Origin: an uncultured SAR86 cluster bacterium
Lineage (GTDB): Bacteria > Pseudomonadota > Gammaproteobacteria > Magnimaribacterales > AG-339-G14
DNA length: 64,000 nt
NCBI GenBank assembly: GCA_902525735.1
Contig: CABZIF010000001.1
Span: 66,813-130,812, forward strand
Direction of reading: 5' to 3'
The translations under genes were made by a program, and so were the position numbers. Positions 6,775 through 53,856 of this stretch are shown here, in pieces (positions within the stretch are counted from its first letter, which is position 1; each line of letters begins with the position of its first letter). Under the pieces are notes generated by a model. It searched no databases and had not been told where the DNA came from. It worked only from the letters and a program-made list of their open reading frames with translations.

Positions 6775-7131
6775 GTGAAGCTTGTTTATATTGTTGTTAG
6801 ACCATCAAAAGTGGAAGTCGTGAAAAGCGCTTTAGCTGCAATAAATATTGGTGGAGCAACTTTATTTGACGTTAGAGGTTTTGGGGCTTCCAGAGGACAT
6901 ACAAGTTCTTACAGAGGTTCACAATACGTAACTGATACTAATCCAAAGGGCATGCTAATGGTAGCGTGCAAAGATGATGATGTTCCTAACATCATTCAGG
7001 CTGTTCGTGACGTGGCTAATACCGGATCTATAGGTGATGGAAAAATCTTCGTCAACGAACTTTCAGATGTAATCCGCATCCGAACTGGAGAATCTGGCGA
7101 AGATGCAATAATGGAGAAAAATAATGACTGA
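6775..7131 (+). CDS. glnK: Nitrogen regulatory protein P-II (GlnK)
   Basis: It has a GTG start after GGAGG. The T-loop GFGASRGHTSSYRGSQY keeps the Tyr at the uridylylation position. It carries the C-terminal block GDGKIFV...IRIRTGE. Its stop overlaps the amtB start (ATGACTGA). Confidence 0.85.
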   Translation: MKLVYIVVRPSKVEVVKSALAAINIGGATLFDVRGFGASRGHTSSYRGSQYVTDTNPKGMLMVACKDDDVPNIIQAVRDVANTGSIGDGKIFVNELSDVIRIRTGESGEDAIMEKNND

Positions 7132-8350
7132 GATGGAATTTGCACTAAATACGTTTTATTTAGTACTTTCTGGGGCTTTTGTTATGTGGATGGCAGCTGG
7201 TTTCACAATGTTGGAAGCTGGACTTGTGCGTTCTAAAAACGTTTCAGAAATTGTAACCAAAAATTTAGGTCTATATTCAATTGCATGCGTAATGTATTTG
7301 GCATGTGGTTTTTATTTAATGTACCCAGGTGATGATGTTATTAACGCATACTTGCCAGGTATGGGTACTACTTGGGGTATTAGCTTAGCTGGTTTAACTG
7401 CAAACTATGATTTGGGTTATTCCGATGCTGCTGATTTCTTTTTCCAGGTTGTTTTCGTTGCTACTGCAATGTCAATTGTCTCTGGAGCTGTAGCTGAAAG
7501 AATGAGACTAGTACCGTTTTTTTTATTCGCAGTTGTTATGACTGGATTTATCTACCCTGTTCAAGGTTATTGGAAATGGGGTGGTGGTTGGTTAGACGCT
7601 ATCGGCTATACCGACTTTGCGGGATCTGGAGTAGTTCACTTATGTGGAGCTTCGGCCGCATTAGCAGCTGTTTTAATACTTGGAGCCAGATCAGGCAAGT
7701 ATGGTTCAGATGGATCAGTTACTGTCATGAGAGGATCAAACATTCCAATCGCTGCCTTAGGTGCTTTTATTCTTTGGTTAGGTTGGTTTGGATTTAATGG
7801 CGGATCTCAATTGGCTGTTCACACCGTGGACAATGCCAATGCTGTCGCCCAAGTTTTCCTTAACACAAATGCAGCAGCAGCTGGTGGTGTTTTAGGAGCA
7901 ATTATTATTTCAAAAATATTAACAGGAAAAATGGATGTTACTATGGGAATTAACGGAGCGATTGCAGGTTTAGTTGCAATTACAGCTGCTCCTGACACTC
8001 CCTCTGGCGGACTTGCTACTATCATTGGTCTGATCGGTGGTGTAATTGTATATTTTTCAGTCGTATTCTTTGACTCAGTACTTAAAGTAGATGACCCAGT
8101 TGGGGCAATATCTGCTCACGGTACGGTAGGTGTTTGGGGAATTATGGCAACTCCTTTATCTGGAGCTGGTGCATTCGGCACGCAAGCAATTGGAGCTGTC
8201 TCTATATTCCTTTGGACTTTTATAACTGCAGGAGCAACTCTTCTCGTCATTAAAGCCATCATGGGGCTTCGTCCTACAATGGAAGACGAAATGGAAGGTA
8301 TGGATGCTTCGGAAGTTGGAGTTTCAGCTTACCCAGAGTTTTCAGAGTAA
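7124..8350 (+). CDS. amtB: Ammonium transporter AmtB
   Basis: It is a 408-aa polytopic protein with Amt signatures (DFAGSGVVHLCGASAALAA, WFGFNGGS, AISAHGTVGVWG). It is translationally coupled to glnK. Confidence 0.9.
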   Translation: MTEMEFALNTFYLVLSGAFVMWMAAGFTMLEAGLVRSKNVSEIVTKNLGLYSIACVMYLACGFYLMYPGDDVINAYLPGMGTTWGISLAGLTANYDLGYSDAADFFFQVVFVATAMSIVSGAVAERMRLVPFFLFAVVMTGFIYPVQGYWKWGGGWLDAIGYTDFAGSGVVHLCGASAALAAVLILGARSGKYGSDGSVTVMRGSNIPIAALGAFILWLGWFGFNGGSQLAVHTVDNANAVAQVFLNTNAAAAGGVLGAIIISKILTGKMDVTMGINGAIAGLVAITAAPDTPSGGLATIIGLIGGVIVYFSVVFFDSVLKVDDPVGAISAHGTVGVWGIMATPLSGAGAFGTQAIGAVSIFLWTFITAGATLLVIKAIMGLRPTMEDEMEGMDASEVGVSAYPEFSE

Positions 8351-8444: not shown

Positions 8445-8609
8445 TTAAGCTACGTGTTTAACACCACGGTAAATTCCTTTACCTGACGTGTTAGACTTTT
8501 CACTTTTAACAGCATCGTGCTTTATACCTCTGTAAATACCAGCTTTAGGAGATTTTTCATCTCTAGCGACATTTTCAGGAGTAACTTTGATACCTCTATA
8601 AGTAGTCAT
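8445..8609 (-). CDS. 54-aa lysine-rich protein with three YRG repeats (DUF4278-like by memory)
   Basis: The track ORF 8445..8660 is trimmed to the ATG at 8609, which lies 7 nt after GGAGG. The product is MTTYRGIKVTPENVARDEKSPKAGIYRGIKHDAVKSEKSNTSGKGIYRGVKHVA. It has its own promoter, leader and terminator. Confidence 0.6.
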   Translation of the reverse strand: MTTYRGIKVTPENVARDEKSPKAGIYRGIKHDAVKSEKSNTSGKGIYRGVKHVA

Positions 8610-8671
8610 ATCGTGCCTCCAGTTTTCGTTTCGATTTCGTACATGCACCCTAAGATGCACACCCTTCTCAA

Positions 8672-8801
8672 CGCGTTCCTTCGGTAGATATTCGGTCTCG
8701 TTCCCTTATCGGTACTTGCTAGCCTTTCTTTAAAAAAAGAAAGAGGTTTTCCTATCTTCCTACTTCCGTTCCTTGCATTAAAATAATGCAGGGAATGAAC
8801 G
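8672..8801 (-). promoter_or_regulatory. Candidate glutamine riboswitch aptamer (glnA RNA / glutamine-I class) with enlarged P2
   Basis: The minus-strand RNA reads CGUUCA-[hairpin UUCCCUGCAUUA/UAAUGCAAGGAA]-ACGGAAGUAGG-[about 74 nt]-CCGAAGGAACGCG. CGUUC can pair with GAACG to form P1. The element starts about 5 nt after the predicted TSS. Confidence 0.65.
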
Positions 8802-8812
8802 ATTACAGTGCA

Positions 8813-8841
8813 ATTATAGAGTTAAGAGCTTTTTTTTACAA
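8813..8841 (-). promoter_or_regulatory. Sigma70-type promoter for the riboswitch/YRG transcript
   Basis: The minus strand reads TTGTAA (8841-8836), a 17-nt spacer, then TATAAT (8818-8813). The predicted TSS is near 8806. Confidence 0.5.
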
Positions 8842-52661: not shown

Positions 52662-52753
52662 GGAGGGGTGGCAGAGCTTGGTTGAATGCACTGGTCTTGA
52701 AAACCAGCAGGTCAGAAATGGCCTCGTGGGTTCGAATCCCACCCCCTCCGCCA
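52662..52753 (+). tRNA. tRNA-Ser (anticodon UGA)
   Basis: The acceptor GGAGGGG pairs with CCCCTCC, followed by G-CCA. The anticodon stem CTGGT/ACCAG closes loop CTTGAAA. It has a long variable arm, and the T-arm is GTGGGTTCGAATCCCAC. Confidence 0.9.
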
Positions 52754-52768
52754 CTTAACAAAGAAGAA

Positions 52769-53548
52769 ATGTCTGAACAAGTAAGAATATTTTCATATTT
52801 ACCTAACCCAAGAGTATGGAAATCAATGATTACCGCAAAGATAGGGAAGGTAGATTTAAAAATTACCGGCGACAAACCTTTAAATTTAAGCAATTGGTTG
52901 TGGGACTTTGAAGCTAGAGAAATAGATTCCTCCGAACTGGATAAACTTAAACTTTATAAAAGAACAGGCAAAAGGGGATTTAAAGGCATACTATATAAAA
53001 CCGATAAATTTCTTGAAAAACATCCTTTTGGAACAGTTCCTGCTGGATTTAATTTTGATGGATCTGAGGGTATCTTCGAATCCAACAGCATTATGAGAGC
53101 TGTAGCTAGAGTATCTTCTGTGAAATCTCTTTACGGCGGCGAAGATGCATTTAAAAAATCAAGAATAGATAGTTTTTTAGATTCAAATCTTGTGTTTGCA
53201 AGAGAGTTTCAAGTTTATGTTTTAGAAATTAACATGCTAAACGAATATTTATATAAAAGGATGAAGTCTGCTTATTTATTTTATTTAGATGGGATAGAAA
53301 CAGCCTTATCAAATGATAAATTTATTGCGGGAAGTGAATTAACAATAGCTGATATATCCTTTGTTTGTGATGTTGCACAATTTTTGCGCGAAAGAGACAA
53401 ACAAAATAATATTAACCAACAAGGATTCGAAGTTATTTCAAAAAATTTCGAAAAAGAATTTCCTAAAGCAACCAATCATTTAAAAAAACTATCAAAAAAA
53501 GAAGAATTTAAGGAAATCATGTTCGATTATCTCAATAAAGTTTTATAA
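52769..53548 (+). CDS. Glutathione S-transferase-like protein
   Basis: The track ORF 52640 starts inside tRNA-Ser, so I trimmed it to the ATG at 52769 (MSEQVRIF...). It carries HPFGTVPA, ESNSIMRA and the C-terminal helix block ELTIADISF. Confidence 0.55.
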   Translation: MSEQVRIFSYLPNPRVWKSMITAKIGKVDLKITGDKPLNLSNWLWDFEAREIDSSELDKLKLYKRTGKRGFKGILYKTDKFLEKHPFGTVPAGFNFDGSEGIFESNSIMRAVARVSSVKSLYGGEDAFKKSRIDSFLDSNLVFAREFQVYVLEINMLNEYLYKRMKSAYLFYLDGIETALSNDKFIAGSELTIADISFVCDVAQFLRERDKQNNINQQGFEVISKNFEKEFPKATNHLKKLSKKEEFKEIMFDYLNKVL

Positions 53549-53625
53549 TTTTATTCTTTAAAAACTTTATTCATAAAAAAATTTTTTTTAATTCAAACTT
53601 AGTCTAAAAAACATCAAATTAGGTA

Positions 53626-53654
53626 TTGTAAATCTTTTTTATTTTCTCTATTAT
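53626..53654 (+). promoter_or_regulatory. Sigma70-type promoter
   Basis: It reads TTGTAA (53626-53631), a 17-nt spacer, then TATTAT (53649-53654). Confidence 0.45.
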
Positions 53655-53660
53655 AAATTC

Positions 53661-53846
53661 ATAACTTAGTGGGAAGCTTAACAACTCGAGACGGAAAGAA
53701 AGAAGCTAAGGAGCAGAAGAAGAAGGGTGAGAAGACGAAAGAAATTTCGCCACATGCAGGGAAAGGGTAACTCGCCTGCACTAGATAACCCGCTAGACCC
53801 CTTCAACTTCGATAAATAAAACACCACTTTGTGGTGTTTTTTTTTA
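53661..53846 (+). ncRNA. Candidate ~185-nt small RNA or trpS leader (purine-rich, terminator-bounded)
   Basis: It is bounded by the promoter above and a strong terminator. It contains a 57-nt tract (53688-53744) with only 6 pyrimidines, several GGA/GGG motifs and a 6-bp hairpin TGCAGG/CCTGCA (53755-53780). Confidence 0.4.
53818..53846 (+). terminator. Intrinsic terminator 11 nt upstream of trpS ATG
   Basis: The hairpin ACACCAC-TTT-GTGGTGT is followed by a T-run of about 9. Confidence 0.8.
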
Positions 53847-53856
53847 TACTAAACCC

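Follow-up and report, generated by a model that had tools for sequence, protein, structure and literature searches.

What is made from the DNA directly in front of trpS in the marine SAR86 cluster, and does it serve trpS or itself? The question is raised by a stretch of 64,000 nucleotides (nt) from an uncultured SAR86 cluster bacterium (assembly GCA_902525735.1, contig CABZIF010000001.1, positions 66,813 to 130,812 of the forward strand), the whole of which is called the window below. Between the stop codon of the upstream gene and trpS, the gene for tryptophan-tRNA ligase (TrpRS), the window contains a gap of 308 base pairs (bp) with a putative promoter, a purine-rich tract and a terminator. 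An initial annotation, made from the sequence alone, proposed that a discrete noncoding transcript of ~185 nt is produced here. The analysis reported below identifies this purine-rich transcript 5′ of trpS as a copy of IMES-5, a catalogued orphan family of structured RNAs. The element is probably a single-copy RNA gene of a SAR86-cluster gammaproteobacterium, with its own promoter and terminator, acting in trans and possibly forming a homodimer.

Identity of the Transcript

The initial annotation held that the transcript matches no recognised element, which proved wrong. An Rfam scan of the window matched positions 53664–53811 (+ strand) to RF02995 (IMES-5) with 128.7 bits (threshold 96.1, E = 4e-25), and the match covers model positions 1–150 of 150. 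Membership in the family was defined by a score at or above the Rfam gathering threshold over the full covariance model, and the window copy scores in that range. A covariance model built for this study from 18 SAR86 copies (R1) gave the window copy 160.5 bits. Two further features of the family were found, a 5′ hairpin followed by a multistem junction with covariation support, and a marine origin combined with a stand-alone gene layout (the true hits are SAR86 or marine gammaproteobacterial and conserve the promoter and the terminator). The 5′ hairpin and multistem junction of the window copy are the same as in the Rfam family, with no structural difference.

IMES-5 was reportedly described from marine metagenomes by Weinberg et al. 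in 2017, and is said to have been classed there as a probable trans-acting small RNA without an assigned organism. IMES-1, to which it is compared below, was reportedly described by Weinberg et al. in 2009. A full-text literature search on IMES-5, IMES-1 and related terms, with the primary IMES descriptions outside its reach, returned nothing relevant, and the main text of PMC5737381 contains no mention of IMES. Within the same reach, no earlier description could be found of the SAR86 host, the fixed site before trpS or the self-complementary loop of IMES-5.

Host and Distribution

Genomes were scanned at one genome per species with two conserved RNA blocks as the query, and the hexamer CUCGAG of the first hairpin loop was required. 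The scan returned 56 loci, 36 of them in SAR86-cluster or unclassified marine gammaproteobacterial genomes and 20 in other phyla. The 36 loci each come from a different genome, with one copy each and a constant spacing between the blocks, and the element is thus conserved outside the genome of the window. The 20 loci in scattered phyla have differing block spacings and were rejected by the 18-copy covariance model as chance matches. The same model identified no second IMES-5 copy in the 64-kb window. The TrpRS of the window is 91–92% identical to the TrpRS of two SAR86 single-cell genomes and 90% identical to a protein labelled SAR86 cluster bacterium by NCBI. IMES-5 was not found in viral contigs, where hits to the IMES-1 pattern were chance matches or chimeric fragments.

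In the surface ocean SAR86 is one of the most abundant groups of uncultured bacteria, and placing IMES-5 as a single-copy, order-wide SAR86 core gene makes this orphan RNA easier to study. A side observation concerns assembly: in L189, L191–L194, L198 and L199 (locus handles of this study) the contig ends 58–165 nt upstream of trpS, so that the breaks fall within or just past IMES-5, which points to the conserved RNA as a cause of broken assemblies where several SAR86 strains occur together.

Promoter, Terminator and Composition

The promoter of the RNA gene consists of a −35 box TTGTAA (53626–53631), a spacer of 17 nt and a −10 box TATTAT (53649–53654), with the A/T-tract region 53549–53625 (14% GC) upstream of it. 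A promoter scan found 6 promoter-like sites against 9.4 expected in shuffles, which is not above chance; the promoter is credible because a −35 TTG and a −10-like box keep an identical offset in ~37 orthologous SAR86 copies. This positionally conserved promoter is predicted, from its sequence, to be of the sigma-70 type. The predicted transcription start (~53661) is the one guessed in the initial annotation and agrees with the promoter offset kept in the orthologous copies; with a 3′ end predicted near 53845, the transcript would be ~185 nt long.

The terminator stem (53818–53840) has 10 pairs and is followed by a run of nine T (53837–53845) that ends 11 nt before the trpS ATG (53857). Across the IMES-5 copies the terminator has an energy of about −11 to −16 kcal/mol. 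The RNA has a GC content of 48%, compared with 14% in the upstream spacer and 34% in the window. Positions 53688–53744 contain 6 pyrimidines in 57 nt, and no other 57-mer of the 64-kb window is as rich in purines, whichever strand is taken. The promoter, terminator, 308-bp gap, purine tract, missing Shine-Dalgarno sequence and UGCAGG/CCUGCA hairpin of the initial annotation are thus all present where it had placed them, and its discrete promoter-to-terminator noncoding transcript is supported by the conserved promoter position, the terminator and the covariation of the fold.

A Conserved Four-Way Junction

The fold energy of the window RNA is modestly unusual (z = −2.84), and the support for the structure comes from covariation rather than from fold energy. 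Pairs were counted in 18 diverse copies using the Rfam architecture plus one pseudoknot (44 pairs). The pairing holds in 95.6% of cells, compared with 36–51% when the partners were slid, compensatory changes occur in 22 of the 44 pairs, and none of 500 shuffles reached the observed covariation. Substitutions among the copies thus preserve the helices, and, as described below, not the reading frame. On this comparative evidence IMES-5 is predicted to fold into P1, a hairpin at the 5′ end, and then a four-way junction formed by P2 to P5, which a loop–loop pseudoknot between P4 and P5 would lock (table 1).

P1, P3, P4 and P5 co-vary among the 18 copies while P2 is near-invariant and is backed by conservation, not by covariation. 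P1 has an outer stem (53664–53670/53705–53711), a 6 × 6 purine-rich internal loop and an inner stem (53677–53682/53693–53698). P2 pairs GAAG-AA-GAAGGG (53716–53727) with CCCUUC-AA-CUUC (53799–53810), and the UGCAGG/CCUGCA hairpin (53755–53760 with 53775–53780) corresponds to helix P4. The pseudoknot, which RNAalifold proposed independently, joins GGGU (53765–53768, P4 loop) to ACCC (53788–53791, P5 loop), and one compensatory variant was found (GGUU/GACC in L003, n = 1).

Table 1. Features of the IMES-5 locus and of the start of trpS, in window coordinates
Feature	Position	Strand	Evidence or remark
Promoter of the RNA gene	53626..53654	+	9/12 consensus match; offset conserved in copies
IMES-5 RNA core	53664..53811	+	Rfam RF02995 full model, own model, covariation
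P1, 5′ hairpin	53664..53711	+	helices 1 and 2: both-side changes in 9/13 pairs
P1 apical loop AACUCGAGAC	53683..53692	+	hexamer CUCGAG 53685–53690, proposed kissing-loop dimerisation site
P2, long-range helix closing the four-way junction	53716..53810	+	helix 3: 99.4% paired
P3 hairpin CGAAA-GAAA-UUUCG	53736..53749	+	helix 4: compensatory in 4/5 pairs
P4 hairpin UGCAGGGA ... UC-g-CCUGCA	53755..53780	+	helix 5: compensatory in 6/8 pairs
P4/P5 loop–loop pseudoknot	53765..53791	+	RNAalifold and helix 6: 100% paired
P5 hairpin CUAG ... CUAG	53781..53796	+	helix 7: compensatory in 2/4 pairs, 100% paired
Intrinsic terminator	53818..53845	+	A-tract, ACACCAC-UUU-GUGGUGU, U9
TATACT plus 6 nt before the trpS ATG	53845..53856	+	candidate −10 box
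trpS, tryptophan-tRNA ligase, 335 amino acids	53857..54864	+	PF00579; conserved downstream neighbour

IMES-1, a Sister Family

IMES-1 is very abundant in marine metatranscriptomes. Against the IMES-1 model (RF02034) the window copy aligned over its full length with a weak score of 29.7 bits (E = 1.4e-4), which does not reach the threshold of 81, and the IMES-5 model built here matches IMES-1 at E = 0.015–0.05. A pattern derived from the IMES-1 family consensus, with the apical loop left unconstrained, was run against marine metagenomes and gave at least 120 loci, representatives of which are IMES-1 by Rfam (102–192 bits). By sequence comparison, the window RNA is best described as related to IMES-1 yet belonging to a separate family.

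The two families have the same architecture of promoter, RNA and sequence-conserved terminator, and they have in common an AACUnnAGACG loop, GGGUGA-AAG, a CCAC junction and GACCCC. IMES-1 differs in its longer P3 region, in a loop hexamer that is mostly CUGCAG and in its varied neighbours, which frequently lie on the other strand; tandem copies occur occasionally and trpS is absent from the loci listed. The terminator stems also differ and are kept within each family (ACACCAC/GUGGUGU in IMES-5, ACAGAGC/GCUCUGU in IMES-1), which is unusual for intrinsic terminators, and the 3′ terminator hairpin may belong functionally to the mature RNA.

Some proteins flanking IMES-1 are 63–76% identical to proteins of the window and the GC content is similar. 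At least part of the IMES-1 loci are thus SAR86-like, and SAR86 probably carries both paralogues. The IMES-1 neighbours were assigned by eye from the sequence, and they fit the report of an abundant metatranscriptome noncoding RNA within a sugar-metabolism region of SAR86 (PMC3358033). Tandem co-oriented IMES-1 copies, each with its own promoter and terminator, were observed in L060 (1388–1579 and 1691–1882) and L132 (5177–5367 and 5479–5669), and L076 contains two copies 1.2 kb apart. Short contigs that join a partial IMES-1 to unrelated, sometimes GC-rich sequence (L064, L068, L077, L081, L084, L148, L163, L168, L169, L200, L203 and L204) look like assembly chimeras, possibly from RNA-derived libraries rich in IMES-1.

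A Gene in Its Own Right or Part of trpS Expression

In the proposed mechanism, the sigma-70-type promoter would start the IMES-5 transcript near 53661 and the terminator would end it near 53845, the ~185-nt RNA would fold into the P1 hairpin and the P2–P5 four-way junction locked by the P4/P5 pseudoknot, and two copies may pair through the P1 loop CUCGAG to form a symmetric homodimer. The sequence evidence makes it highly probable that IMES-5 is a stand-alone RNA acting in trans and not a cis-regulator of trpS. The IMES-5 element is regarded as a gene in its own right because its terminator is a separate module and because a divergent clade carries an intact RNA away from trpS.

The association with trpS is strong. 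The two are adjacent in every main-clade copy, where the RNA core ends 46 nt before the ATG. In a reverse test, contigs were fetched through three TrpRS clusters (59–68% identity) with the RNA ignored, and IMES-5 was at the same place in 21 out of 21 loci having enough upstream sequence. The linkage to trpS, about which the initial annotation had asked, stands for the main SAR86 clades and fails in a divergent clade of five loci (L012, L015, L042, L043 and L045), in which an opposite-strand gene of 181 amino acids lies between the IMES-5 terminator and trpS. The RNAs of this clade score 78–88 bits with the model built here, which was not trained on them, their promoter and terminator are intact, and their trpS has its own leader with a Shine-Dalgarno sequence. 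At these loci, as a separate observation, the A-tract/hairpin/U-tract terminator of the RNA would serve both convergent transcripts.

No Shine-Dalgarno sequence precedes trpS in the window. TATACT-N6-ATG was found in 31 out of 32 distinct arrangements with trpS directly following the RNA (N7 in the remaining one), and TATACT overlaps the last T of the terminator U-run. Arrangements in which trpS stands apart from the RNA lack TATACT. Its position fits that of a −10 box from which transcription would start at the A of the ATG and yield a leaderless mRNA, and if TATACT is such a box, the trpS mRNA would lack a Shine-Dalgarno sequence because it is leaderless. Among the 52 open reading frames of the window, 7 have TAnnnT 6–7 nt before the ATG compared with ~4 estimated by chance, which is not clearly enriched. 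The fixed site of the RNA is best interpreted as conservation of gene order, which may be held by the overlap of the trpS start signals with the end of the RNA terminator. Were the leaderless reading right, the arrangement of RNA, terminator, TATACT and ATG would provide a clean natural system in which an essential aminoacyl-tRNA synthetase is expressed from a leaderless mRNA.

Several points weigh against a fully independent RNA gene. For a promoter of trpS alone no convincing −35 box was found, the region being taken up by the terminator hairpin; the ends of the IMES-5 transcript are predictions from sequence; and the very strong adjacency to trpS would leave room for read-through co-transcription or for an effect on trpS in cis.

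The first of these two alternatives is that RNA and gene form one operon, in which partial read-through of transcripts begun at the strong RNA promoter would supply most of the trpS expression, while a stable RNA, released through termination or processing, would still act in trans. The missing −35 box would find an explanation here, as would the very short fixed spacing and the conserved adjacency. The operon is nevertheless unlikely: it requires passage through a strong terminator of 10 pairs and U9, TATACT 6 nt before the ATG fits a leaderless −10 box better than a read-through leader, and in the divergent clade trpS is found uncoupled from the RNA.

An effect in cis would make IMES-5 a riboswitch-like or T-box-like leader that senses tryptophan, tRNA-Trp or TrpRS and controls terminator read-through into trpS, as in the attenuating leader considered in the initial annotation. 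In the main SAR86 clades the RNA always immediately precedes trpS in the same orientation. This position, a terminator 11 nt before an ATG without a Shine-Dalgarno sequence, and a complex tertiary fold of the kind seen in riboswitch aptamers would all suit such a leader. However, the terminator lies apart from the folded core, and no conserved antiterminator or other alternative pairing with the terminator was found in the alignment. The one candidate pairing, between the CGCCAC junction and GUGGUG, does not co-vary, since the junction can also read CGAC, CAAC or CCAA while the terminator stays the same. The convergent gene between the RNA and a trpS with its own Shine-Dalgarno leader in the five divergent loci, and the same design in the homologous IMES-1 without a conserved downstream gene, also argue against control in cis, which is considered improbable. 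Two more specific forms were rejected: a T-box-like specifier, as the UGG triplet seen in P1 of the window RNA is not kept among the copies, and tRNA mimicry for TrpRS, as the CCAC junction is just as well conserved in IMES-1, a family without trpS nearby. The CCAC junction is probably structural. For annotators the consequence is that IMES-5 should not be labelled a trpS riboswitch.

For the proposed trans-acting IMES-5 RNA, the most likely role would be that of an abundant protein-binding or scaffold RNA and not that of an antisense regulator.

A Self-Complementary Loop and a Possible Homodimer

The P1 loop AACUCGAGAC contains the palindrome CUCGAG in the format AA-CUCGAG-AC. The hexamer is identical in the 36 SAR86 loci of the genome scan, an invariance that is uninformative because the scan required it, and it is invariant in 16 full copies chosen through trpS alone. 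In IMES-1, where the loop was unconstrained, the hexamer was tallied in 78 distinct copies among the matches listed: CTGCAG in 58, CTCGAG in 11, ATGCAG in 4, TTGCAA in 3, GTGCAG in 1 and CTTAAG in 1. In each of the 78 copies listed the central tetramer is self-complementary, and four out of the six variants are palindromic over all 6 nt. The loop variants tested pass the Rfam IMES-1 threshold except for GUGCAG (L078), which is below it. The loop is thus kept self-complementary through compensatory change (CUGCAG, CUCGAG, UUGCAA, CUUAAG), a mark of a kissing-loop element of the type of the dimerization initiation site (DIS) of HIV-1.

In a formal count, hexamer positions 1–6, 2–5 and 3–4 were treated as pairs. 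Positions 3–4 were GC in 30 copies, CG in 9 and UA in 1, without exception, and positions 1–6 were CG in 35 copies, UA in 2 and other combinations in 3. The loop cells are paired in 97.5%, compared with 15–68% in slid controls, and the covariation score is 0.324 compared with 0.075 in shuffles (0/500). Adjacent bases cannot pair within one loop, which leaves pairing between two molecules as the simplest explanation, and the predicted self-duplex of CUCGAG has an energy of −9.5 kcal/mol. By this covariation, there is about an even chance that two IMES-5 molecules join through the P1 loop into a symmetric kissing-loop homodimer.

Three observations count against the dimer. The loop statistics go back to few independent events, some three double changes (GC/CG, GC to UA, and C..G to U..A), the outer hexamer positions are mismatched in 5 of the 78 IMES-1 copies listed, and the loop of IMES-5 itself never varies, the covariation coming from its sister family. 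A broader proposal is offered tentatively and seems somewhat less probable than not: that IMES-5 and the far more abundant IMES-1 both form DIS-like kissing-loop homodimers through P1, with the differing centres of the palindrome (CG for IMES-5, GC for most of IMES-1) preventing cross-pairing between the paralogues within a SAR86 cell, and that, separately, trpS of most SAR86 is leaderless with a −10 box fused to the terminator.

The palindrome might instead act at the DNA level, for example as the operator of a dimeric repressor just past the transcription start. It lies ~25 nt downstream of the predicted start, and palindromes are generally typical of DNA-binding sites. Six base pairs are short for an operator, though, and the hexamer sits exactly in the apical loop of a co-varying hairpin, flanked by conserved unpaired purines; moreover, its centre changes between the paralogues (CG/GC) while the rest of the loop is kept. 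A DNA operator is accordingly given little chance.

IMES family RNAs are among the most abundant transcripts of the surface ocean, and a homodimer, if true, would be the first mechanistic handle on these orphan families. A self-complementary apical loop kept through compensatory change in both families lends itself to a simple dimerisation test with loop mutants.

Titration, Base Pairing and Coding

The initial annotation had pointed to GGA/GGG motifs as a sign of a CsrA/RsmA-titrating RNA. If the RNA titrated a protein in the manner of CsrB/RsmZ, or paired with targets as an Hfq-dependent small RNA through its purine tract and U-tail, this would account for the several such motifs of the window copy, for the resemblance of AGAAGAAGAAG to ARN repeats and for the long U-tail of the terminator. 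The GGA motifs are not conserved, however: their positions are scattered among the 18 diverse copies, the only frequent one (13/18) lies inside helix P4 and not in a loop, and helices P1 and P2 engage a large part of the purine tract in base pairs, which makes both forms very improbable. A search by tblastn found no CsrA or Hfq genes in the window or in the fetched SAR86 DNA, which is a small part of each genome, so that this result is uninformative.

The remaining suggestion, a 33-amino-acid Lys/Glu-rich peptide from the GTG at 53669, is refuted to near certainty even though the window contains the 33-codon open frame, since neither the frame nor the start codon is conserved among the homologues (a stop falls at codon 16 in L010 and L024, whose TrpRS is 91–92% identical, stops occur in most other clades and the start codon is absent from most) and substitutions preserve base pairs, not codons.

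Neighbouring Genes and Other Elements of the Window

In several SAR86 clades a gene for a 77-amino-acid protein with an RRM domain (PF00076; 50030–50263, + strand, in the window) lies upstream of IMES-5 on the same strand, and in some of them right next to it. It is ~250 nt upstream of the RNA in L003, L009, L022, L031 and L195–L197 and 2.5–2.8 kb upstream in L010, L024 and L055. The protein could be a partner of IMES-5, or the arrangement could be merely conserved gene order. A tRNA of 89 nt (52662–52750, + strand) lies just upstream of the GST-like gene. The open reading frame of that gene was called from 52640 and overlaps the tRNA, and its true start is therefore probably further downstream, near 52775.

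On the opposite strand, 8448–8841 contains a glutamine riboswitch (RF01739, 42.3 bits) that carries a 74-nt insertion and precedes a small open reading frame and a terminator. The encoded peptide begins MTTYRGIKV and has repeated YRG motifs. The whole unit is convergent with the gene at 7124–8350. In the metagenome loci L063 and L111 the corresponding place beside an ortholog of the latter gene is taken by an IMES-1 gene. The slot at 8670–8803 was considered as an IMES relative and rejected, being an ordinary glnA-type riboswitch with a small open reading frame.

Comparison with Known Systems

In E. coli, the gene of the stable and abundant 6S RNA (ssrS) lies directly upstream of the protein gene ygfA in the same orientation. 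IMES-5 and trpS share this layout of an RNA gene directly upstream of a co-oriented protein gene; the two RNAs have no structural similarity, and at trpS a strong terminator and a possible leaderless promoter intervene.

For the proposed dimer the closest comparison is the HIV-1 DIS, whose loop reads AA-GCGCGC-A and whose natural variants keep the palindrome. Both RNAs present a six-base self-complementary sequence in a hairpin loop with unpaired flanking purines, whereas their sequences and biology are unrelated and the IMES-5 dimer is proposed from covariation only. Among orphan bacterial RNAs, OLE, ROOL and GOLLD form much larger, higher-order assemblies, unlike IMES-5, which at ~185 nt would form a one-loop dimer at most; like the proposed IMES-5 homodimer, they are orphan structured RNAs that self-assemble, as seen by cryo-electron microscopy (PMC12286853).

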